A stretch of 64,000 nt of DNA from Escherichia phage vB_EcoM_G37-3. The DNA lies in the sequence record MK327941.1; one strand, written 5' to 3'. Positions 8,127-31,570 of this stretch are shown piece by piece. A model generated the notes under the pieces. The model was given only the letters and a program-made list of their open reading frames with translations. It had not been told where the DNA came from and did no database searches. The translations under genes were made by a program, and so were the position numbers. Position 1 is the first letter of the stretch. Every line of letters starts with the position of its first letter.

Positions 8127-9814
8127 ATGCAAGATATTAAATTCACTTTCTGAACTACTCCCATGTTCAAATTGAATGTAGCGATTCAATTTTATTAGAA
8201 ATGCGAGATTATTTTAGTTTTGAAGTCGAGGGAGCGCGGTTTCAAAAAAGATTTAAGTATGGTGGATGGGATGGGCGTATTCGTCTTTTAGATTACAACG
8301 GAAAGCTGCCAATCGGTCTAACTAAAACCGTGGGAATCTTCGCTAAAAATATGGGCTATAGCGTATGGGTAGATCCTCGCTTATTCGAAAAAGAACAAGT
8401 TACAGAAGAAGAAATTACAAAATGGTGTAATAACTTAGAATTATATTCCGGTGCTAACAGGATCACCCCTCATTGGTATCAATCAAAGGCCGTCTTTGAA
8501 GGTATTTCATCATAAACGCCGTATGTTAGTTTTGCCTACGTCCGCTGGTAAATCTGCGATTGCTTGTATGTTGTCTCGTTGGTACTTAGAGAATTACGAA
8601 GGGAAAGTGTTGATCATCGTTCCTACCACGTCGCTAGTGCTGCAAATGCGTGATGACTTTGTTGATTATCGCCAGTTTCCTTATGAAGCAATTCATACTA
8701 TCATGAGCGGTACTAGTAAACACGTAGGTGATCGCCTGATCGTTGTTAGTACGTGGCAATCTGCATGTAAACAACCTAGTGAGTGGTTCCAACAATTCGG
8801 GATGGTTATTGTTGACGAATGTCACAAGGCCACTGCTAAAACCTGCTAAACATCGTTACTGATATGGATCATTGTCAATTTAAGATCGGCATGACTGGTT
8901 CCCCTCGTGACGGGAAAGCTAACATGATGCAGTATGTCGGGCTTTTCGGTGATATTTCTAAGATCGTGAGTATTGACCGCCTGATGGAAGAAGGGCAGGT
9001 GACAAAACTGAAAATTAACTGTCTTTTCCTTCGTTATACCGATGAGGAATAGCGCGGTTAAGGGGCGAGAATATGCGGAAGAGATCAAGTACATTACATC
9101 TAACCCACGACGAAATAAGTTTGCTTGTAATTTGGCGCTAAAACTCGCTAAGAAGGGCGAAAACGTATTCCTGATGTTCCGCAACACTAAGCACTGAAAA
9201 TTAACTGTCTTTTCCTTCGTTATACCGATGAGGAATGTAGCGCGGTTAAGGGGCGAGAATATGCGGAAGAGATCAAGTACATTACATCTAACCCACGACG
9301 AAATAAGTTTGCTTGTAATTTGGCGCTAAAACTCGCTAAGAAGGGCGAAAACGTATTCCTGATGTTCCGCAACACTAAGCACGGAAAACTTATGTATGAT
9401 GCGTTACAGAAGGTACACGACAAGGTTTATTATATTGACGGTGGAGTTAAGACAGAAGAACGTGATGAATTTAAGAAATTAGCGGAAGGGGAAACCGGGA
9501 TCATTTGCGTTGCATCCTATGGTGTGTTCTCTACTGGTGTTTCCATCAAGAATTTGCATCATGTTATTTTCGGTCATCCAGTGAAGGAATCAACTATCGT
9601 TCGTCAGAGTATCGGTCGTGCATTGCGTAAACATGGTTCTAAGGATATTGCAACGGTCTGGGATCTTATAGATCATCTGGCGGTGAAGACAAAGAGCAAT
9701 AATGCTAAGAAACAGTTTAGCCACCTTAATTATGCTCTTAAACATGCGCTTGAAAGAATAAAAATTTACAACACCGATCGATTCGAATATGTCACGAAAA
9801 CAATCGAGATTTAA
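8127..9814 (+). pseudogene. uvsW: uvsW (DNA/RNA helicase), disrupted by frameshifts and a tandem duplication
   Basis: Fragments in alternating frames match T4 UvsW (FSFE..G.RF, GWDGRIRLLDY, LPTSAGKS, DECH, GSPRDGKANMMQYVG, VFSTGVSIKNLHHV, TVWDLID); frame changes near 8140, 8505 and 8840, plus duplication at 9009-9382. Confidence 0.8.
9009..9382 (+). repeat. Tandem direct duplication inside uvsW (186 bp + 188 bp)
   Basis: Copies 9009-9194 and 9195-9382 identical except for a 2-nt GT indel; copy 1 reads GAG GAA TAG (stop), copy 2 reads through; junction at GAAAA microhomology. Confidence 0.9.
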
Positions 9815-10810: not shown

Positions 10811-11197
10811 TCACTTTGCAAGTCTTATGCGTAGTTGTTCAAGATCATCTGGGTTATCTATTACTGAAAAGTAGATTGATACTATGATTGAGTTATCGTC
10901 GTACTGCGGAGTTACTTCTACTGTCAGGTTTCGGACCCGTGGTTCATAGTTTCGGATCGCCTCATTGATGTTTTTTGATAAGGTATCCACCGTCAGTGGG
11001 TTCATGTTCTCAAACAGTGATTTATTGAGATCGCATCCAAACAGTGGATCAAATGGACGAGATCCCTTGCGAGTAGTCACGATCAGTAGAATAGAATCTT
11101 TAACCGCTTTAATCCCTATGTTCTTTTTAACGTCGTTATTCCACGATCTGGATATATTGAGATCCAAATCAGTATACATCTGATTAATAGTTGCCAT
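10811..11197 (-). CDS. 25: Baseplate wedge protein gp25
   Basis: Matches T4 gp25 (TTRKGSRPFDP.FGCDL, FENM.PLT.DT, RNYEPR, FSVIDNPDD); start at ATG 11197 (MATINQMY). Confidence 0.9.
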   Translation of the reverse strand: MATINQMYTDLDLNISRSWNNDVKKNIGIKAVKDSILLIVTTRKGSRPFDPLFGCDLNKSLFENMNPLTVDTLSKNINEAIRNYEPRVRNLTVEVTPQYDDNSIIVSIYFSVIDNPDDLEQLRIRLAK

Positions 11198-11205
11198 GTT
11201 ATACC

Positions 11206-11835
11206 TCAAAGAATTTTAAGGAAACTGGATAGACCTGATAATGAATATACACCAGATTCCCCGCATTCGCACTTGATCGGTACTGCCAGCGTGATTTGAT
11301 TTCTTGTTAGCTCGTCGATCACTTCTTCCACTTTATCCGTGGTAAGCATATCCAGCACGCGGTCAAAGTCCTGTGCGTTCAGGTCGTCTATATTGAATTG
11401 CTGATCGCCGATCACGATATATTCGATACATGCAATTACCATCTGCATAATATCAACATCTTCTGTAAACTTAGGTTGACGAAATTTGATTTTTACTTGC
11501 CCTAAGTCCAGAATATACGGTTCAACTTCTGGTATCTGTGTGCGTGAAACATCAAGAGAGTATACTTTCTCTTTATTGCATACACCACACACCCAAGTAG
11601 CATCAATTTTCATCTTATTGAGGCTGTGACACCATAAGAGAAGAAAAATATATTCTGCTTCGCATTTCTCTAGCTCTAATGCATTGATCCCCGTACATTC
11701 ATGTATGATCTCTATAACAACCTCTGACAGCTTGCCAGTCTCTTTTGCTGCTACCAGTTTTTGAAATTCGCCGAAGGTGAAAGCACGGGCGTGTATCAAC
11801 TTTTCGCCTAATTGGATCTTGAAAAAGTATTGCAT
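11206..11835 (-). CDS. 26: Baseplate hub subunit gp26
   Basis: 209 aa; synteny (25-26 divergent from 51) and size match T4 gp26. Confidence 0.7.
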   Translation of the reverse strand: MQYFFKIQLGEKLIHARAFTFGEFQKLVAAKETGKLSEVVIEIIHECTGINALELEKCEAEYIFLLLWCHSLNKMKIDATWVCGVCNKEKVYSLDVSRTQIPEVEPYILDLGQVKIKFRQPKFTEDVDIMQMVIACIEYIVIGDQQFNIDDLNAQDFDRVLDMLTTDKVEEVIDELTRNQITLAVPIKCECGESGVYSLSGLSSFLKIL

Positions 11836-23985: not shown

Positions 23986-24153
23986 TTATTTGTTAATTTC
24001 TGGTGCGTTGCTAGGATAGTAACCTTCTTTAACACCCAGATATTTTGCAACCATCCCTACAATCTTCTGTGCTACTACAATGTCAAATTTCAGATAATCT
24101 TCGCCGTGGGTTTCAATGATATATGCTTCACATGCTGCTTTAGTCTCGAACAT
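23986..24153 (-). CDS. Small hypothetical protein (55 aa), paralog of 27246-27413
   Basis: AGGAGA RBS; about 90 percent nucleotide identity with second copy. Confidence 0.5.
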   Translation of the reverse strand: MFETKAACEAYIIETHGEDYLKFDIVVAQKIVGMVAKYLGVKEGYYPSNAPEINK

Positions 24154-24851: not shown

Positions 24852-24924
24852 TGTTTGATTCTCCTAAATGGTATCTCGTTTCGATGTGTGTATTATGCTA
24901 TAGGCCGGATCTGGTGTCAATGCC

Positions 24925-24954
24925 TTTTTTAAAAAAGCCGACACTAAGGTCGGC
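24925..24954. terminator. Hairpin terminator
   Basis: GCCGACACTAAGGTCGGC flanked by T6 and A6. Confidence 0.55.
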
Positions 24955-24962
24955 TAATAAAA

Positions 24963-25271
24963 TCATTTAGACAAGTAATCATTCTGTGCAATACGGTCGG
25001 CGTATGCTGGTGTTATGTCAATCGCCAGCACTTTAACGCGTGCTTTCTTGCGACCTGGGTTTTCTCGTAACCAGTGCTCATGACCGTGAACATTTTTATA
25101 CTTTGATGCTTCTTCAAATGTACGGATCGGACCTGGGTAATCAGCGTAAAGGATCTCTAGGTCTTCGGTGATGTAAAAATATACATCGTAATTACTGTTC
25201 TCTAGTTTAAGCAGAGAGTTGCGAAATTGTGGTAAATTCTCGCGGGTAAATTCAACTACAAGATTTTTCAT
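24963..25271 (-). CDS. HxHW-family small protein, member 1
   Basis: HGHEHWLRENPGRKKARVKVLAIDITP. Confidence 0.55.
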   Translation of the reverse strand: MKNLVVEFTRENLPQFRNSLLKLENSNYDVYFYITEDLEILYADYPGPIRTFEEASKYKNVHGHEHWLRENPGRKKARVKVLAIDITPAYADRIAQNDYLSK

Positions 25272-25321
25272 AGTGATATCCTCATTCAGATAGATTAAAA
25301 GGGGGCTTAACGCCCCGTATA

Positions 25322-25609
25322 TTAAAACAGTCCTTCCTGTACACCGTAGTAGAGTTCATCGCTGATAATTTCATTAATGCGACGGTGTGCATATTCCTGA
25401 TTTGCGAAGTTATCAGCAAGTTCTACTTTAGTTTCGCCGTCATGAGTCCATTTAGTGATAACTTTACCATCTGCAAATTTGAAGTTGAACTCTTTAGCTA
25501 CTGCATCGCGTACCAGACGTGCGAACTTGTTGTTACGGATTGCATTATCGGTTTCGTGTGCAGCGTGAGCGAATTTGTTAACTTTCAGAGTGATAGTAAT
25601 GTATGCCAT
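25322..25609 (-). CDS. Hypothetical protein, paralog of 28851-29162
   Basis: Shared AKEFN.K core with second copy. Confidence 0.5.
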   Translation of the reverse strand: MAYITITLKVNKFAHAAHETDNAIRNNKFARLVRDAVAKEFNFKFADGKVITKWTHDGETKVELADNFANQEYAHRRINEIISDELYYGVQEGLF

Positions 25610-25655
25610 AATTTGATTCTCCTAGTTAGAAAGTGTATCTCGTTTCGATGGGGAT

Positions 25656-25684
25656 ATTATGCTATATCCCCGATCCGGTGTCAA
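25656..25684 (-). promoter_or_regulatory. Early promoter with inverted repeat flanking the -10
   Basis: Minus strand TTGACA-N17-CATAAT with GGGGATAT / ATATCCCC arms. Confidence 0.55.
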
Positions 25685-25690
25685 CACTTT

Positions 25691-25969
25691 TTATAAAATA
25701 ATTTTTTGATATTTTTCTATGATGTTCGTGTAAGTCACATCAACCGCTAGCACCGTTGCTTCGAATCCACCGTTTAGCCAATGGCTATGATCATGATCGT
25801 GAAAGAAACCTAGACCAGTACGAAGACCTTCTTTATATTCTGCGCGTACATTCAGTTTGTCGTCGATAAACAGATAAAACCATGAATTTTTACTAGGATT
25901 GATGATACAACCTTTCAGATTAGGGAGAATATCACGACTAAGAATAAACTTATCACCTACTTTGAGCAT
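25691..25969 (-). CDS. HxHW-family small protein, member 2
   Basis: HDHDHSHWLNGGFEATVLAVDVT; start at internal ATG. Confidence 0.5.
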   Translation of the reverse strand: MLKVGDKFILSRDILPNLKGCIINPSKNSWFYLFIDDKLNVRAEYKEGLRTGLGFFHDHDHSHWLNGGFEATVLAVDVTYTNIIEKYQKIIL

Positions 25970-25983
25970 AATATTTTCCTCAC

Positions 25984-26292
25984 TTATAAAGTTTGACCGT
26001 TGTTTTTCGCGTAATGCTGAATGCGTGCTTGATCTGCTTCCGCTGGTGATAGATTCCATGCGATCACTACAACTTCTGACGCATCATGATCATTATCACT
26101 TACCCAATGATTATGATTCATACAATTGTTTGCTATCGCGTGAGCAAATGATCTCATTACCGGAGACGTATAATCATAGTAACGGATTTTCAGATTTTCA
26201 TCAACGTACAAGTAGATCGTATACGGCTTATATTCAGTAACCAGTAACAGACAGTTACGCAATTCTGGGAAAATCTTTTTAGTTAATTTCAT
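25984..26292 (-). CDS. HxHW-family small protein, member 3
   Basis: NHNHWVSDNDHDASEVVVIAWN; start at ATG 26292. Confidence 0.5.
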   Translation of the reverse strand: MKLTKKIFPELRNCLLLVTEYKPYTIYLYVDENLKIRYYDYTSPVMRSFAHAIANNCMNHNHWVSDNDHDASEVVVIAWNLSPAEADQARIQHYAKNNGQTL

Positions 26293-26293
26293 T

Positions 26294-26512
26294 TTATAAT
26301 CCTCGGTCGCGGCTATAGTACACGGTACGCCATACAATTTCATGTTTCGTGTCGCTCCAGCACACGATCTCATTTACTCTTAAATCTTTGTTATCAACAA
26401 AAGATGAACATTGTGACGCTTCTTTCATCATTTTATCTGCTGTTTTCTCATCAAATACAGCACAGATTTCTTTATACACTCGATAATCTTTGAATTGACT
26501 CTGGATACTCAT
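26294..26512 (-). CDS. Hypothetical protein, paralog of 26515-26730
   Basis: SQFKDYRVYKEICAVFDEKTADKMMKEASQCSSF versus SKFKEYKAYQQILRVYEPEFAEKMMEDASKCPSF. Confidence 0.45.
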   Translation of the reverse strand: MSIQSQFKDYRVYKEICAVFDEKTADKMMKEASQCSSFVDNKDLRVNEIVCWSDTKHEIVWRTVYYSRDRGL

Positions 26513-26514
26513 AA

Positions 26515-26730
26515 TTAACACCAATCAAGAGTTTTTGAGAAAACCTCTATCCATTGTTGAGTATATGCGGTTTCTTTCCATGATACAATACCAGTAGAAT
26601 AATGGTTTTTGTTTCCAGAAAAGGACGGGCATTTTGATGCATCTTCCATCATCTTTTCGGCGAACTCTGGTTCGTATACCCGCAAAATCTGTTGATATGC
26701 TTTGTATTCTTTAAATTTGCTCATAATCAT
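26515..26730 (-). CDS. Hypothetical protein, paralog of 26294-26512
   Basis: Tandem paralog pair. Confidence 0.45.
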   Translation of the reverse strand: MIMSKFKEYKAYQQILRVYEPEFAEKMMEDASKCPSFSGNKNHYSTGIVSWKETAYTQQWIEVFSKTLDWC

Positions 26731-26989
26731 TCACTACCTTATCAGCTTCTTTTGTTGTTTTTACATCAACTGCGATAACCCGTAAAGGTTCGTCATGGTT
26801 CCACCAATGATCGTGAATATCGGCTTGTGATTTATCACCAAAGGAATCACGAATATCATTTTTACATTTATAGCTAATGTGACCGTCATAGTCAACATAA
26901 AGGTAATTATCGAAAATCGGCGTTTTTAAGATCATACCGAAAAATCTTTCTTTGTGTGTCTTATCCAGTGTTGCAGTAATTCGCATCAT
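26711..26989 (-). CDS. HxHW-family small protein, member 4
   Basis: IHDHWWNHDEPLRVIAVDVKT. Confidence 0.5.
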   Translation of the reverse strand: MMRITATLDKTHKERFFGMILKTPIFDNYLYVDYDGHISYKCKNDIRDSFGDKSQADIHDHWWNHDEPLRVIAVDVKTTKEADKVVNDYEQI

Positions 26990-27001
26990 AATATATTCCT
27001 C

Positions 27002-27181
27002 TTAGAAAGGGATGGTCATTTCTTGAGCTTGTACATTCTCGTTAGGATTAAACTTCATCCAACCGATATTGTCTACCAGCATATGTACATTTTTATCATA
27101 TCCTACGTGAGTAGTCAACACTAAATGTGCTTTACCTTCAACGATGATTTCCATGTACTTCTGAACTTCGATAGCTTTCAT
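27002..27181 (-). CDS. Small hypothetical protein (59 aa)
   Basis: ATG with GGAGA RBS. Confidence 0.4.
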   Translation of the reverse strand: MKAIEVQKYMEIIVEGKAHLVLTTHVGYDKNVHMLVDNIGWMKFNPNENVQAQEMTIPF

Positions 27182-27245
27182 TTTGATTCTCCGTTTGTTG
27201 TCTTGATGGGAGTATCTTACTACTCCCTTTAATCATTGTCAACGA

Positions 27246-27413
27246 TTATTTGTTAATTTCCGGTGCGTTGCTTGGATAGTAGCCTTCTTTAACACCCAGA
27301 TATTTTGCAACCATTCCGGTGATCTTCTGTGCTACTACGATATCGAATTTCAGGTAGTCTTCACCGTGGTTTGCTACAATGTATGCTTCGCATTCTGCTT
27401 TAGTCTGGAACAT
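27246..27413 (-). CDS. Small hypothetical protein (55 aa), paralog of 23986-24153
   Basis: Near-identical second copy. Confidence 0.5.
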   Translation of the reverse strand: MFQTKAECEAYIVANHGEDYLKFDIVVAQKITGMVAKYLGVKEGYYPSNAPEINK

Positions 27414-27447
27414 TTTTGATTCTCCTATATCTCGTTGGTATGTGTGT

Positions 27448-27476
27448 AGTATAGGGGATCACCGATCCCCTGTCAA
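27448..27476 (-). promoter_or_regulatory. Early promoter with palindromic spacer (PeSL-type)
   Basis: Minus strand TTGACA-GGGGATCGGTGATCCCC-TATACT. Confidence 0.65.
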
Positions 27477-27484
27477 CAACTTTT

Positions 27485-27775
27485 TTATTCTTTATACGCA
27501 TATTTCATAAATTTGTCTGCTACTTCATCGGCATGTTCCGATTCTACGCCGGATTCGAGAACAATAGCAAGGTCGGTTTCGTCGTGACCTTCGTACCAGT
27601 GATTATGTGTGTCGTTTGAATCAATATAGAATTTATCACCTTCGTAAGTTCGAGCAAATACATCTAAATTCTCGTCGATGTAAAAGATCCAATCTTCATA
27701 AAGAATAACCGTATTAGCAAGGTTCTTATTACCTTCAACGAAAGGTTCGGCTACAAACAAATCAGTACGTTCCAT
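27485..27775 (-). CDS. HxHW-family small protein, member 5
   Basis: THNHWYEGHDETDLAIVLE. Confidence 0.5.
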   Translation of the reverse strand: MERTDLFVAEPFVEGNKNLANTVILYEDWIFYIDENLDVFARTYEGDKFYIDSNDTHNHWYEGHDETDLAIVLESGVESEHADEVADKFMKYAYKE

Positions 27776-27790
27776 AGTATTTTCCTCAAA

Positions 27791-27952
27791 TTAAGAAAAA
27801 GCGTTGAAAACACCCGCCAACACAACTACGTTAGCGATAAGGCTTAAAAAGCATTTCTTGATACTTTCAGTGCAGATACCAATACTGGCAGGAATTACAC
27901 CGATCACGATAGCATAAAGAATAACTGCGATTTCTTGAAATACACCGTTCAT
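27791..27952 (-). CDS. Small membrane protein (53 aa)
   Basis: Hydrophobic ORF MNGVFQEIAVILYAIVIGVIPASIGI... Confidence 0.35.
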   Translation of the reverse strand: MNGVFQEIAVILYAIVIGVIPASIGICTESIKKCFLSLIANVVVLAGVFNAFS

Positions 27953-28008
27953 AATATTATCCTCAATTTGTGGGAGAGTATTACCCTCCCGATTATTGTT
28001 ATACTACA

Positions 28009-28311
28009 TTACGCAAAATGGCGTGTCAATACTTCTTTTGCTGTTCCGCTAAGATTCTCGATCTCTCCTGGCATAACATCAACCGCCAGAACTTCTACAA
28101 CATCCTCTGATCCTAACCAGTGAGTATGACCTTTGTAGAACTTGATATCCCATTTATCGCTATCGCTAGCCCACCACACATCACCGTCTATAAAGTTGAT
28201 GTAAAGCACACTACGACACATTGAATTAGTTACTTTCAATACTGCGCCTTTCATCTCTTCCACGGTATGGTCTTCCATTTTGAAGACCTCGCCTACCTTA
28301 ACTTTTGCCAT
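28009..28311 (-). CDS. HxHW-family small protein, member 6
   Basis: GHTHWLGSEDVVEVLAVDVMP; start at ATG 28311. Confidence 0.5.
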   Translation of the reverse strand: MAKVKVGEVFKMEDHTVEEMKGAVLKVTNSMCRSVLYINFIDGDVWWASDSDKWDIKFYKGHTHWLGSEDVVEVLAVDVMPGEIENLSGTAKEVLTRHFA

Positions 28312-28312
28312 G

Positions 28313-28579
28313 TTACATGCTCCGAATATGTTTAGATGCATCTTCCAGTTCGTCGATAGTGACACTGTGAGCCAGTAAGTGTACTGGTTGTGGTTCTTCA
28401 CCTTCCATAGTATTGATCAGATGACCGTTTCCTGGGTGGAATGTATCGTTGCCGTTCCAAATAGCATACACATCATCTTCTGTTACGTAGATAATAAGTC
28501 CAATCGGTGATTCTGGTAATTGAAAAATTTTACCCACTGCATCTTTGCGATTGTTTACGATATCTTTTACTGTCTTCAT
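28313..28579 (-). CDS. HxHW-family-related small protein, member 7 (divergent)
   Basis: FHPGNGHLINTMEGEEPQPVHLLAHSVTIDE. Confidence 0.4.
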   Translation of the reverse strand: MKTVKDIVNNRKDAVGKIFQLPESPIGLIIYVTEDDVYAIWNGNDTFHPGNGHLINTMEGEEPQPVHLLAHSVTIDELEDASKHIRSM

Positions 28580-28598
28580 TTAGTTACCTCTCGTTAAA

Positions 28599-28778
28599 TT
28601 ACATCACAATCACGCCAGCCGTTGAAAGTTGATGTTTCAACTGAGCATTTTCTGCTACTGTCAAATCAATGATTTCTTGTGACGCTGCAATCATATAGCC
28701 ATTGGTGATATTGTTTTGCATCAGTTCAATGGTTTCTTCGTTGTAGCGGATTTTAGCGATGATTTCGTTGAAGTTCAT
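28599..28778 (-). CDS. Small hypothetical protein (59 aa)
   Basis: ATG with GGAGA RBS. Confidence 0.4.
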   Translation of the reverse strand: MNFNEIIAKIRYNEETIELMQNNITNGYMIAASQEIIDLTVAENAQLKHQLSTAGVIVM

Positions 28779-28812
28779 GTTTGATTCTCCTAGTTCGTTT
28801 CGGTATGTGTGT

Positions 28813-28842
28813 ATTATAGGGGAGTTTAACCTCCCTTGTCAA
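28813..28842 (-). promoter_or_regulatory. Early promoter with palindromic spacer (PeSL-type)
   Basis: Minus strand TTGACA-AGGGAGGTTAAACTCCCC-TATAAT. Confidence 0.6.
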
Positions 28843-28850
28843 CAACTTTT

Positions 28851-29162
28851 TTAAAGTTTTTCCATGATAACGGTCATAATTACATCTTCTGCGCGGGCGG
28901 TCAGATTATCAGCGTCAGCATGTGGGCGGTTGGTTGTTACAGAGATAACACCGTTGCGCACTGGTTTGATATTGATATCAAGATGATCCGCGAAACGTTC
29001 GCCAGTTACAGAATGAATTTTGGTGTTAAATTCTTTTGCCAGTGCCTTGCGAACTTCACGAATCAGGATAGCGTTTTTCAGTTGGTTCTCCGCGCTCATG
29101 GTCTTCTGGGTGTTCATGGTTCCGTCGAAGTCAATCATTGGCAGCGTTACGATGTATTTCAT
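28851..29162 (-). CDS. Hypothetical protein, paralog of 25322-25609
   Basis: Shared AKEFN.K core. Confidence 0.5.
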   Translation of the reverse strand: MKYIVTLPMIDFDGTMNTQKTMSAENQLKNAILIREVRKALAKEFNTKIHSVTGERFADHLDINIKPVRNGVISVTTNRPHADADNLTARAEDVIMTVIMEKL

Positions 29163-29601: not shown

Positions 29602-30075
29602 TTACTCCTTATTTTCGCGCTCGTACTTTTCGAAATAAAATTCTACTGGCTGGTCATGAATTGACAGCAAGCCAAAGCGTTTAGCCGCTCGCAATCCCAT
29701 ATTGCGCTGAATGTACTTCTGGAAGTTCTCGCGTATACACTTACGCCAGTATTCTAAGCCCATACAGCTTTTATAAAGATTGCATTGCACACACGCCGGA
29801 TTCATGTTATCAAGTATATCATGTTCCGGTTTATGCATTCCTACAACCTTATACTTCCACGATCCATCATCATTACGGGCAATTCGTCCATTTTCATCAT
29901 AGACTACCTTTGAGCGTCGCAATACTGGTTTGATGTGGTCTGCGTGCCAGCGATCCCCTAGTTCCTCGCCACAATAGGCACAACGTCCACCATATTTCAT
30001 TTTCAGGATCTGGCGTTGCTCTTTCTTTGACAATTTTTTAGGTTTAGGGGCTTTCGCCCCTTCATTATCACACAT
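29602..30075 (-). CDS. HNH endonuclease
   Basis: CAYCGE...HADHIKP...CVQCN motif set. Confidence 0.65.
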   Translation of the reverse strand: MCDNEGAKAPKPKKLSKKEQRQILKMKYGGRCAYCGEELGDRWHADHIKPVLRRSKVVYDENGRIARNDDGSWKYKVVGMHKPEHDILDNMNPACVQCNLYKSCMGLEYWRKCIRENFQKYIQRNMGLRAAKRFGLLSIHDQPVEFYFEKYERENKE

Positions 30076-31570
30076 CGAATACCTCTTTTACTGTATTTGC
30101 AGTGGTCTTGTCGTAGCGAATACGTTTGATGATCGGGAGAAATAAAGAGAACTCCGGTTCATCTTCTTTACGTGATTTGCTGCGGATATACCCGTTGCAT
30201 GTCATCTCAATGACTTTTCCAATCAGGTTATGACGGTCAGCCCATAACATTTCTCGGTCGAGTTCATTTCGACGATCGAACGGAATTACACGTTCAATAC
30301 CATCATCACCTTTTTCGGTTGTAGTGTCGGTTAATCCCGATCCGGTGTTAGTCATCATTCGTCCGCACGCACTACGGACAGTAAAACCGCCTACCTTATT
30401 GGGGTCTTTACTATGCGGATATACATCAACAATTTCCGCGTCGAAGTCAATCACTTCTTTAAATTTAACCTGATCTTTACTACGGCGATCTTCAAATACA
30501 CCATGTAAATTTTTAAGGATAATACCTTCTAAGCCCATGTTTACATAGCGATGATATACTTCGCGAGCTTCATCTATATTGTTAACTACAGTGTTTTCGA
30601 TTATCTGAACACGAGGATCGTTAAGTTCTTCAACAATCTGTTTTAGTTCTTCGAATCGATCTTTATATTGCTTCGTTGCTTTCTCGTTTCCGTAATACAC
30701 ATCACGGTCGATAACATCCCAGACAGTATAAACAATACATTGGGCTTCTTCTTTTGGAATAGTTCCTTTAAGTGATTTGTTGAGGATACCATTTCCGGTC
30801 TGACGGTCTGCAACAACGGATTCTTTTACTGCTTCCGCTACTGGCGTTAATGGCATTTCCTCTTCTTCAAATATCCATGACAGAGTACCATCATAAACGC
30901 TTTCAACGAAGTTCTGCGCTGGTGTTTGCGAAAGGGTAGGCATATATACCAATTCGCCATCTAGAACAATTCCACGGCCTCGTAGACGCTCTAAAACCGC
31001 AAACAAATCATCAAGTCCCTGATAGGTATTACCTGAACGGGTATAGATTGCTAATGTTTCCCCGTCAATATCAGCCATACCACGAGCACCATCGCTTTTA
31101 AGTTGTGCATACGCCGGATACTTGATATTAGCAATAGCCTTATCAGAATATGACGATGCAAGGTGACACGGTTGCTGGGGGATCAGTTTCTTCCATACCT
31201 TGTTTGCAGTGGTAGCGGAACAACCACATTCCAGATCACGATTCAGGACCATCATTGCAACTTTAGCATCATCTTCTGACAAGCAAGTCAGAGTATCGGT
31301 AACTAGCTGTAATGCTGCGTTACCAGTTACTTGACGCGTGGCAAGTTTATTTTTAAAGACCTGTAATGCACCGGATAAAGACAATACAGACGAATAACGC
31401 GATGGTTTATCGTATTTCTTTACGCCAAACGTAACCTGTTTGCAATATGCCAGATAAAAGCATTCTTTCAGTGTTTCATTGCTTGCAGATTCTTTCAGGA
31501 TCTTTTCTTTCAGCGATGTTTTGTCTGTTGCTGCAAGCTGGTTAATGATATTAAGAATTGACATTTTCAC
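30068..31570 (-). CDS. 30: DNA ligase gp30
   Basis: 500 aa; KADGAR lysine-adenylation motif; extended similarity to T4 ligase. Confidence 0.9.
   Translation of the reverse strand: MKMSILNIINQLAATDKTSLKEKILKESASNETLKECFYLAYCKQVTFGVKKYDKPSRYSSVLSLSGALQVFKNKLATRQVTGNAALQLVTDTLTCLSEDDAKVAMMVLNRDLECGCSATTANKVWKKLIPQQPCHLASSYSDKAIANIKYPAYAQLKSDGARGMADIDGETLAIYTRSGNTYQGLDDLFAVLERLRGRGIVLDGELVYMPTLSQTPAQNFVESVYDGTLSWIFEEEEMPLTPVAEAVKESVVADRQTGNGILNKSLKGTIPKEEAQCIVYTVWDVIDRDVYYGNEKATKQYKDRFEELKQIVEELNDPRVQIIENTVVNNIDEAREVYHRYVNMGLEGIILKNLHGVFEDRRSKDQVKFKEVIDFDAEIVDVYPHSKDPNKVGGFTVRSACGRMMTNTGSGLTDTTTEKGDDGIERVIPFDRRNELDREMLWADRHNLIGKVIEMTCNGYIRSKSRKEDEPEFSLFLPIIKRIRYDKTTANTVKEVFDV

Follow-up and report, generated by a model that had tools for sequence, protein, structure and literature searches.

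A stable array of small paralogs from an H-x-H-W protein family in RB49-like phages

Introduction

Small early genes of unknown function, located in variable regions, make up a large share of the genome of T4-type phages, and such regions are the source of several anti-defence and host-takeover factors characterised recently.

The closest described systems are the PeSL-associated ORFans of phages RB49 and phi1, which are small, narrow-range and dispensable genes (PMC2839356, PMC4122927). They share the phage group, the type of region and the cassettes with the locus of Escherichia phage vB_EcoM_G37-3 analysed here. The papers on them (Arbiol et al. 2010, PMC2839356; Comeau et al. 2014, PMC4122927) treat such genes as ORFans unrelated to one another, which PeSL recombination shuffles; in RB49/phi1, PeSLs act as strong promoters and terminators (PMC2839356). 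When fused to lacZ, one of these cassettes, RB49 PeSL206/205, yielded about 13,000 Miller units (PMC2839356). The words 'paralog' and 'gene family' are absent from both papers, and literature searches on RB49 and Krischvirus found no description of the family reported below.

Another comparable system is represented by the internal protein (IP) loci of T-even phages, where variable small accessory proteins are encoded at a fixed T4-type locus with conserved regulatory elements, and for which adaptive or defensive roles were proposed (PMC2839356). The array resembles these loci in the clustering of small accessory proteins at a fixed T4-type locus with conserved regulatory elements. However, IPs are carried inside the capsid and injected along with the DNA, and close relatives show high polymorphism at these loci, whereas the H-x-H-W family is placed under early promoters acting after infection, its content and order are conserved, and it shows no sequence relation to IPs. 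The family is also comparable in size, early or accessory position and small alpha/beta architecture to small phage anti-defence proteins of solved structure, such as Tad2 and AcrIIA7.

The array and its genes

The window, i.e., the whole analysed stretch of 64,000 nucleotides of record MK327941.1, contains seven ORFs of interest (m1 to m7), located in the variable stretch that separates gene 30 (DNA ligase) from alt, as in RB49; the array thus sits in the RB49-type hyperplastic region, the location typical of PeSL-flanked ORFan modules. All seven ORFs proposed by a sequence-only reading were confirmed on the minus strand, each preceded by a Shine–Dalgarno-like GAGG/GGAG located 5-10 nt upstream of ATG:

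m1, 24963..25271, minus strand: 102 aa, HGHEHW, VLAIDI; RB49 ORF197 ortholog; phrog_9345; leave-one-out E 5.1e-16
m2, 25691..25969, minus strand: 92 aa, HDHDHSHW, VLAVDV; RB49 ORF199 ortholog; phrog_17255; leave-one-out E 1.1e-8
m3, 25984..26292, minus strand: 102 aa, HNHW; RB49 ORF200 ortholog; phrog_9345; leave-one-out E 6.5e-15
m4, 26711..26989, minus strand: 92 aa, HDHW, VIAVDV; RB49 ORF203 ortholog; phrog_15972; leave-one-out E 4.6e-8
m5, 27485..27775, minus strand: 96 aa, HNHW; RB49 ORF206 ortholog; phrog_15965; leave-one-out E 6e-6
m6, 28009..28311, minus strand: 100 aa, HTHW, VLAVDV; RB49 ORF208 ortholog; phrog_16486; leave-one-out E 3.3e-7
m7, 28313..28579, minus strand: 88 aa, N-x-H-L replaces H-x-H-W; JSE EpJSE_00215 ortholog; absent from RB49

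The start of m6 lies 1 nt past the m7 stop. The m5 gene, corresponding to RB49 ORF206 that adjoins the tested cassette PeSL206/205, is the most acidic copy (pI 4.2, net charge -17) and also the most variable one between genomes. No tandem DNA repeat was found under the array, and the 64-kb window holds no Rfam families or tRNAs.

Orthologs of six of these genes are already held by PHROGs groups, all described as 'unknown function', namely phrog_9345 (m1/m3), phrog_17255 (m2), phrog_15972 (m4), phrog_15965 (m5) and phrog_16486 (m6); phrog_9345 is also matched weakly by m2, m4 and m5 (E 7e-5 to 2e-3). While these five groups have no mutual link and m7 is in none of them, here the seven proteins are joined by HMM, profile–profile and fold evidence, together with an invariant motif. 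All seven genes are paralogs forming one family of small (88-102 aa) alpha/beta proteins.

Reality of the family and its motif

Leave-one-out HMMs were searched against the window translated in six frames (598 segments). All of m1-m6 were recovered when left out, with E-values between 5e-16 and 6e-6, and the best unrelated segment reached about 0.03-0.5; a weak recurring match at 10814-11215 (minus strand) appeared to be noise on inspection (~0 bits). Moreover, H.HW occurs six times in the 50,724 translated residues of the window, against 0.54 expected, and every occurrence falls in m1-m6. Both the E-values and this count indicate that the motif is significant for m1-m6, which constitute a statistically solid family.

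The shared strings proposed from the sequence alone fared unequally: H.HW is found in six of the seven proteins, (V/L)(L/I)A(V/I)D(V/I) in only four, and the fixed-spacing version (Y/F)..D......H.HW in none. The proposal of a seven-paralog family was supported by the leave-one-out procedure for m1-m6, and m7, which is not recovered in this way, is linked to them by hhalign and Foldseek.

The probability that the motif is shared by chance among unrelated or non-coding small ORFs is negligible. Pairwise identities among the paralogs are low (22-36%) and m7 fails the simple HMM test, as coincidence might predict, but the leave-one-out E-values (to 5e-16), the excess of motif copies, the dN/dS of 0.07-0.33 in orthologs, the confidently predicted fold and the hhalign probability of 95% for m7 argue against it. 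For m1-m6, coincidence is ruled out by the HMMs, dN/dS and the motif count.

Across 18 representatives of <60% identity, H64, H66 and W67 are the sole invariant positions, other conserved positions being mostly hydrophobic core. Asn or Asp predominates at the x position of H-x-H-W, and the residues surrounding the motif are enriched in Asp, His and Gly. Both m1 and m2 read HxHxH, and Asp/Glu is present 2-6 residues past the Trp in all six window copies. Two His alone would make an incomplete metal site, and a third His is absent in 8 of the 18 representatives.

The divergent m7 branch

The m7 protein lacks H.HW and has GNGHLI at that site. Its leave-one-out E-value was 0.54 (rank 9). Nevertheless, alignment of m7 orthologs with the family by hhalign gave a probability of 95.4% (E 1.8e-8, 68 colinear columns), and the m1 model matched the JSE m7 ortholog C4MZ33 in BFVD (Foldseek probability 1.00, E 0.033, TM 0.58/0.65). 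A model built from the six m7 orthologs alone was poor (pLDDT 64); its elements follow the same order as in m1, and the reciprocal fold search found only its own ortholog. Because N-x-H-L stands in place of H-x-H-W, m7 is considered a divergent relative rather than a canonical member. Its orthologs keep their sequence despite the loss of the first His and the Trp, and this suggests that the motif is dispensable for the fold or for some functions.

Only 7 distinct cultured genomes of Krischvirus contain this branch, and most genomes lack it. One relative (P0108), 65% identical to m7, is part of a terminator-bracketed two-gene moron at the extreme edge of a lambda-like Salmonella prophage. In prophages only the m7 branch was seen, and H-x-H-W members were seen only in lytic T4-like genomes.

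Structure and search for known relatives

The AlphaFold model of m1 (pLDDT 88, pTM 0.82) consists of a strand, a helix, three strands, a long loop with a short helix, a strand and a C-terminal helix, and it matches BFVD models for orthologs of other paralogs and of m7 in Foldseek. H-x-H-W follows strand 4 and precedes strand 5, where the model has its lowest confidence and indels are frequent, and the secondary-structure and pLDDT tracks suggest that the motif loop would be exposed on the surface. Family proteins have pI values of 4.2-6.9 and no hydrophobic segments, and are therefore likely to be soluble and not to bind nucleic acid.

The predicted fold is without a known relative. Scans of Pfam, NCBIfam and PADLOC and a sequence-profile search of the PDB all remained at noise level, and the family did not map to a known characterised domain. 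Neither the seven proteins nor the prophage homolog matched a PADLOC family at E<=0.1. Several known motifs and folds were compared with the motif or the N-terminus and rejected. The cupin signature G(X)5HXH(X)3-4E(X)6G with a second His motif in a beta-barrel was not found, nor was the histidine-triad (HIT) pattern H-phi-H-phi-H-phi-phi, with three conserved His, hydrophobic spacers and the HIT fold. The family also lacks the beta-beta-alpha metal finger of HNH endonucleases, with its spaced His...Asn...His and Pfam HNH models, the KOW profile match and SH3-like barrel of Spt5-NusG proteins, and the HxHxD of metallo-beta-lactamases.

A comparable protein from elsewhere is PYDG_00009 (87 aa) of the N4-like Pseudoalteromonas phage pYD6-A, which matches the m1 model with a Foldseek probability of 0.98 and TM of about 0.6. 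Like the family genes, it sits in an early run of 85-105-aa ORFs including paralog pairs, and it has a similar strand...strand-helix layout ending V-E-L-I-x-x-D-I. However, it lacks H-x-H-W, its HMM score is non-significant (6.8 bits), and both its phage family and its host are unrelated; it is at most a remote fold-level analog.

Distribution, synteny and selection

Outside RB49-like (Krischvirus) T4-type phages, the family is essentially limited to a few uncultured relatives. Among 1.84e9 representatives, 20 matched at E<=1e-3. Word-index searches gave only orthologs, a second search seeded with 20 divergent members added one protein, and tblastn with distant members returned Krischvirus only among 50,697 phage records.

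An RB49-like coliphage carries a conserved row of six to eight paralogs, whose order is identical in 10 genomes, and dN/dS is 0.07-0.33 in all seven ortholog groups. The array is old and keeps its order throughout the genus, with purifying selection acting on every copy. Single copies can be absent, replaced or frameshifted; for instance, JSE has a split m1, and both JSE and KMB43 show replacement at the m2/m3 slots. The antiquity of the array is also marked by L012, a metagenome contig with m6-, m4- and m3-like copies and a two-domain fusion in an order similar to the array, and by L002, with two m5-like copies, also in the ligase-alt region.

The locus had been called a diversifying early gene family on first reading. 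The family itself is supported by the m1-m6 HMMs, and variation between orthologs is concentrated in the motif-flanking loops and the N-terminus, but gene-wide purifying selection and stable synteny are unusual for an arms-race locus.

Transcription units and PeSL cassettes

The seven genes are internal members of short operons headed by PeSLs, cassettes that combine a near-consensus sigma-70 promoter with a stem-loop. Ten aligned PeSL cassettes with TTGACA-17/18-TATAAT-like boxes are located between 23.9 and 29.3 kb, each followed by another small ORF and not by a family gene. Those related to the array, and the companion ORFs, are as follows:

28779..28866, minus strand: early promoter cassette of the PeSL type described in PMC2839356, TTGACA-18-TATAAT, matching at 12/12 positions, spacer with a stem-loop; unit 59-aa ORF, m7, m6
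28599..28778, minus strand: 59-aa companion ORF, phrog_14803, first gene of the m7/m6 unit; homolog precedes an m6-like gene in L012
27953..28045, minus strand: weaker PeSL-like cassette, TTGACA-17-TAGTAT, stem-loop after -10; overlaps the m6 3' end; unit 53-aa ORF, m5
27791..27952, minus strand: 53-aa companion ORF, hydrophobic, probably membrane; precedes m5; no PHROG or Pfam match
27414..27500, minus strand: PeSL cassette just downstream of m5, at the site of RB49 PeSL206/205; heads a 55-aa ORF
27182..27262, minus strand: PeSL cassette of the longest unit, 59-aa ORF, m4, 71-aa ORF, 76-aa ORF, m3, m2
27002..27181, minus strand: 59-aa companion ORF, phrog_15082; precedes m4; homolog precedes the fusion gene in L012
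26294..26730, minus strand: two tandem 71/76-aa paralogs, phrog_8471, 40% identical, in the m4-m3 gap; homologs adjoin family members in L013 and L002
25610..25708, minus strand: PeSL cassette downstream of m2; unit 95-aa ORF, hairpin (25302-25316), m1
25322..25609, minus strand: 95-aa companion ORF, phrog_7474; precedes m1
24936..24955, minus strand: terminator-like hairpin and T-run directly after m1; the next PeSL follows at 24852-24944

The claim of an early promoter for each gene, either its own or one to which it is coupled, was half right: each lies in an early unit, and none of the seven is directly behind a cassette. They are the second to sixth genes of their units, each with a GAGGA-type ribosome-binding site. 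In other words, the PeSL immediately upstream that defines PeSL-flanked ORFan modules is not found at family genes. Unlike the PeSL-shuffled ORFans, these genes are paralogous, syntenic and genus-stable, lack flanking PeSLs of their own, and follow a different first gene in each unit. The promoter sequence and the published reporter assays on neighbouring cassettes suggest that the genes are expressed early. Duplication of whole modules (companion plus family member) was considered and rejected: the two 59-aa companions are dissimilar, and a 95/103-aa pair shares a PHROG assignment only.

Possible functions

The preferred interpretation, tentative and rated slightly below an even chance, is that the array is a maintained panel of related early binders with differing specificities, which would help to take over the host or counter its defences, each of them being dispensable on laboratory hosts. 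Host RNA polymerase would transcribe the genes in the first minutes of infection from near-consensus sigma-70 PeSLs, and the products would act as soluble cytoplasmic accessory factors. Each protein may bind a host component (or a small ligand) through the surface loop with two His and Trp, a divalent metal ion being probably bound by the two His together with acidic residues close by, while the length-variable Asp/Gly/His-rich loops flanking the motif would set target specificity. It is unlikely, though conceivable, that the family is the first example of a fold class not recognised before, made up of small effectors that target the host or counter its defences with the help of metal. RB49-type phages would then keep six to eight specificities, and the m7 branch would travel between lytic T4-like phages and temperate prophages of Salmonella.

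Other explanations appear less probable. The proteins might be small oligomeric 'sponges' sequestering a small molecule, such as a nucleotide-derived immune signal or a metal ion, with paralogs covering different ligands; the likelihood of this is low. In such a sponge, stacking on a base or ring would fall to the Trp, and contacts with phosphates or metal to the His. A comparably low likelihood is given to a role in shielding the host cell, infected or lysogenic, from other phages or from mobile elements, by superinfection exclusion or inter-phage competition. The position of the m7 relative at a prophage edge is typical of lysogen-expressed exclusion or defence genes, and immediate-early expression would be fitting timing in a lytic phage; nevertheless, the restriction of prophage copies to the divergent branch and the lack of a matching PADLOC defence model argue against this role, and the prophage-end position is non-discriminating because anti-defence genes also occur there.

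Still smaller is the chance that the family represents a minimal metal-dependent enzyme (hydrolase or phosphoesterase) with a His-x-His catalytic centre, reminiscent of the cupin HXH(X)3-4E, histidine-triad HxHxH and metallo-beta-lactamase HxHxD motifs. Two strictly invariant His are what an active site would typically show, and the HxHxH of m1 and m2 and the acidic residue after Trp in the six window copies would suit such a centre. Equally doubtful is a role in regulating the phage's own gene expression via nucleic acid or the transcription/translation machinery, as KOW/SH3-like adaptors. This possibility is favoured by one public record labelling an m2 ortholog (P0071) as 'KOW2-KOW3 domains of Spt5' and by the N-termini of m2 and m6 (KVGDKF..LKG), which look KOW-like by eye.

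Seven 'hypothetical proteins' distributed over five unlinked PHROGs can now be treated as a single family, defined by an invariant motif of three residues and supported by a confident model and evidence of selection, accompanied by a two-domain fusion and a prophage-borne cousin; this makes it a compact experimental target. The picture of unrelated ORFans shuffled by PeSLs is corrected, since an old and stable array of paralogs makes up part of the region. Should the function prove ordinary or redundant, the interest would be local to Krischvirus biology.

The purifying selection and stable synteny noted above, unusual for an arms-race locus, count against the preferred interpretation. Individual dispensability fits the patchy occurrence of m7 and the split or replaced copies in JSE and KMB43. 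In MAFFT alignments, single-domain sequences were stitched across both halves of the natural tandem fusion P0091, and such an alignment would mislead AlphaFold. The existence of this fusion indicates that two family domains can work side by side.

A family of small paralogs in the ligase-alt region

All seven ORFs that a sequence-only reading had described as an array of paralogs are present at their coordinates on the minus strand, and a GAGG/GGAG-type ribosome-binding site precedes each ATG. They are listed here as m1 to m7, together with the early promoter/stem-loop cassettes (PeSLs, named by position) and their companion ORFs.

Transcription units of the array
P28842, 59-aa ORF, m7 (28313-28579), m6 (28009-28311); minus strand
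Weak P28029, 53-aa hydrophobic ORF, m5 (27485-27775); minus strand
P27476, 55-aa ORF; minus strand
P27242, 59-aa ORF, m4 (26711-26989), 71-aa ORF, 76-aa ORF, m3 (25984-26292), m2 (25691-25969); minus strand
P25684, 95-aa ORF, hairpin, m1 (24963-25271), terminator; minus strand

When the window's complete set of 598 stop-to-stop segments was searched with leave-one-out HMMs, m1-m6 were each found at E 5e-16 to 6e-6, with the best unrelated segment at about 0.03-0.5. This recovery indicates that the relationship of m1-m6 is not due to chance, despite pairwise identities of 22-36% among family members, and the HMM check proposed earlier thus found the motif family to be significant for these six. 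Moreover, the 50,724 translated residues contain H.HW six times, against 0.54 expected, and all six occurrences fall in m1-m6; that the shared motif arose by chance is hardly conceivable. In the same search m7 was not recovered (E 0.54), and it carries GNGHLI instead of H.HW. Its ortholog alignment nevertheless matches the family profile in hhalign (probability 95.4%, E 1.8e-8, 68 colinear columns), with N-x-H-L opposite H-x-H-W, and the structural model of m1 resembles the BFVD model of the JSE m7 ortholog C4MZ33 (probability 1.00, E 0.033, TM 0.58/0.65). Taken together, these results define six canonical members and one divergent relative, so that the idea of seven paralogs with a common motif stands for m1-m6 and fails for m7 as a carrier of the motif. 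As literal strings, H.HW is present in six of the seven proteins, the strict LAVDV-type string in four, and the proposed fixed-spacing aromatic-D-H.HW string in none.

Megablast of 24900-28650 matched 58 phage records at 80-99% identity, all of them from RB49-like coliphages or Shigella phages in the T4-type genus Krischvirus (Straboviridae), and the genes under the match are annotated as hypothetical proteins in every case. In RB49, the array region is bounded by gene 30 (DNA ligase, then an HNH endonuclease ORF) and alt, and this is one of the hyperplastic regions of RB49 and phi1 (PMC2839356). The Krischvirus array belongs with the accessory families of early genes found in the hyperplastic regions of T4-type phages. 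The PeSL cassettes, the hyperplastic region and the ORFans are already published (PMC2839356, PMC4122927), and individual family proteins are in databases as hypothetical proteins. RB49 ORFs 197, 199, 200, 203, 206 and 208, together with JSE 00215, are one paralogous family with an invariant motif and a fold that is unassigned, a grouping that was not found in the searchable literature. The family is real and clean and lends itself to experiments; it is also taxonomically narrow, and would be of little surprise to a T4 specialist.

Transcription context and companion ORFs

The stretch from 23.9 to 29.3 kb has ten intergenic cassettes that fit one aligned consensus, composed of an A-rich tract, TTGACA, a GC-rich stem-loop, a TATAAT-like element, ACACACAT..CGAAACGA, GGAGAATCAAA and ATG, in which the stem-loop usually lies within the 17-18-nt spacer. 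These cassettes are PeSL elements, for which Arbiol et al. 2010 demonstrated very strong sigma-70 promoter activity as well as terminator activity (PMC2839356). PeSL206/205, a cassette tested in that work (Arbiol et al. 2010, PMC2839356), is directly downstream of RB49 ORF206, the m5 ortholog. None of the seven family genes stands immediately behind a PeSL; of the proposal that each has its own early promoter or is coupled to one, the first half is incorrect. Early expression of these genes can soundly be inferred from the sequence and the published reporter data.

The companion ORFs, all on the minus strand, include paralogs of their own. Two 55-aa ORFs (23986-24153 and 27246-27413), each directly after a PeSL cassette, belong to phrog_8009 (unknown function) and are 89% identical, as if a duplication or a gene conversion had recently taken place in between the genes of the H-x-H-W array. 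Between m4 and m3, the 76-aa (26294-26524) and 71-aa (26515-26730) ORFs are tandem paralogs of phrog_8471 with 40% identity. Homologs of these two ORFs adjoin family members on L013 and L002, both metagenome contigs, which points to an association that recurs. Additionally, ORFs of 95 aa (25322-25609) and 103 aa (28851-29162) both match phrog_7474 at about 1e-43, while no pairwise BLASTP similarity was found between them; either they are very remote paralogs or this PHROG is heterogeneous.

Conservation and spread of the array

Across ten Krischvirus genomes the array comprises 6-8 members in the constant order m7, m6, m5, m4, m3, m2, m1, with m7 missing in RB49, JK32, Sf20 and KMB43. The alleles in the m2/m3 slots of JSE and KMB43 share just 46-53% identity with m3; JSE also has a split m1, and m5 is the most variable copy (71-97% identity). 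Values of dN/dS per ortholog group range from 0.07 to 0.33 (Nei-Gojobori), which shows that the genes are real and constrained. In the sense of gene-wide positive selection, the description of the family as diversifying is not borne out. Variation among orthologs is concentrated at the N-terminus and in loops beside the fixed motif.

Uncultured T4-like phages are the source of the distant members. Contig L002 carries two m5-like copies within the equivalent ligase-alt interval. Contig L012 (SRR8048117_15661, a metagenome contig) has, within 2.1 kb, an m6-like, an m4-like and an m3-like gene, along with homologs of both 59-aa companion ORFs. In this compact array, the three single-domain members are joined by P0091 (823-1434), a 203-aa protein in which two family domains, each with HNHW, are naturally fused head to tail. 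Members on L012 pair with different window paralogs (m6 at 47%, m4 at 37%, m3 at 44%), which implies that the duplications are older than the split of these lineages. No tandem DNA repeat is left in the array.

The mobile branch of the family is m7, present in only 7 distinct cultured Krischvirus genomes. A homolog with 65% identity lies in a Salmonella enterica assembly (GCA_017826215.1; L014 7754-8294), where it forms, with an unrelated 78-aa ORF, a two-gene moron. The unit lies between terminator-like hairpins at the edge of a lambda-like prophage, on the side next to the host DNA, and indicates that the gene has been transferred between temperate phages and lytic T4-like ones.

Database searches and predicted structure

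The earlier failure to place the family among known ones was upheld: none of the seven proteins has a Pfam match above noise, and there was no match in NCBIfam (20 members scanned) or PADLOC. In PHROGs, m1-m6 are spread over five separate families with unknown function, and m7 is in none of them. Of 1.84 billion cluster representatives searched by profile, just 20 reached E<=1e-3, and one of these is a spurious repeat protein. Two word-index searches returned essentially orthologs alone, and when two divergent members were compared by tblastn with 50,697 phage records, only Krischvirus was matched. The sequence was also checked for a cupin, HIT, HNH, metallo-beta-lactamase or KOW reading, none of which held.

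In m1 numbering, H64, H66 and W67 are the only positions that do not vary among 18 representatives with less than 60% identity, and the residue between the histidines is Asn or Asp in 15. Other conserved positions are mostly hydrophobic strand residues, with D35, D/N85 and A91-D92, the latter at the start of the C-terminal helix. The proteins lack hydrophobic segments and are neutral to strongly acidic (pI 4.2-6.9); Asp, Gly and His are enriched in the loops around the motif (odds ratios 1.75, 2.6 and 2.0, respectively).

The AlphaFold2 model of m1, built from a 20-sequence alignment, is confident (pLDDT 88.2, pTM 0.82), with its lowest confidence in the block around the motif. It comprises strand 5-7, helix 13-16, strands 19-23, 29-34 and 40-45, helix 52-55, a short helix 65-68 (the motif), strand 78-83 and helix 88-101. 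In BFVD, Foldseek matched this model only to family orthologs, the m7 ortholog and one protein of pYD6-A, an N4-like Pseudoalteromonas phage. As far as could be tested, the predicted fold has no characterised relative among these matches. The pYD6-A protein, an 87-aa early protein (L018 2215-2478), resembles the m1 model in fold (probability 0.98) and lacks both the H-x-H-W motif and a significant sequence score. The surrounding early region (L018 1932-4985) contains a run of 85-105-aa ORFs including paralog pairs, and could be remotely analogous to the Krischvirus array.

Possible function

The family is tentatively regarded, at slightly less than an even chance, as a panel of early accessory binders directed at host components or small ligands. 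Presumably transcribed from immediate-early sigma-70 promoters, these small, soluble, acidic single-domain proteins would bind their targets through a common contact, the His-x-His-Trp loop, possibly with the assistance of a metal, and specificity would be set by the loops flanking the motif. Such a panel best fits the combination of immediate-early promoters, small, soluble, acidic proteins, the individual dispensability of members together with purifying selection, and an invariant three-residue motif whose surrounding loops vary in length and are enriched in Asp, Gly and His. A bolder version, in which the proteins are a new fold class of metal-assisted effectors, serving counter-defence or host takeover and maintained as a panel with several specificities, appears unlikely.

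Other functions are given still lower probability. The Salmonella prophage moron suggests a role in superinfection exclusion or between phages, which is nonetheless considered quite improbable, and a sponge for a ligand or metal is placed equally low. A minimal metalloenzyme and a KOW-like regulator of phage expression are both judged very unlikely.

Other observations in the window

The HNH endonuclease ORF (29602-30075, minus strand, 157 aa) overlaps the 3' end of DNA ligase gene 30 (30068-31570, minus strand) by 8 nt, and the arrangement is annotated likewise in RB49, JSE and other Krischvirus genomes. Three further paralog pairs on the minus strand (40526-41068/51615-52202, 34286-35188/38890-39408 and 18543-19394/19446-21524) emerged from an all-against-all comparison, with 29-37% identity over 100-117 aa. 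The uvsW helicase gene (context 8201-9814, plus strand) contains a 188-bp tandem duplication at 9007-9388, in two copies that are 98% identical; in 55 related phage records, the stretch that matches 1000 bp of the window is no more than about 815 bp long. The gene is split into at least five ORFs in alternating frames, which could be a real disruption or a sequencing or assembly artefact.
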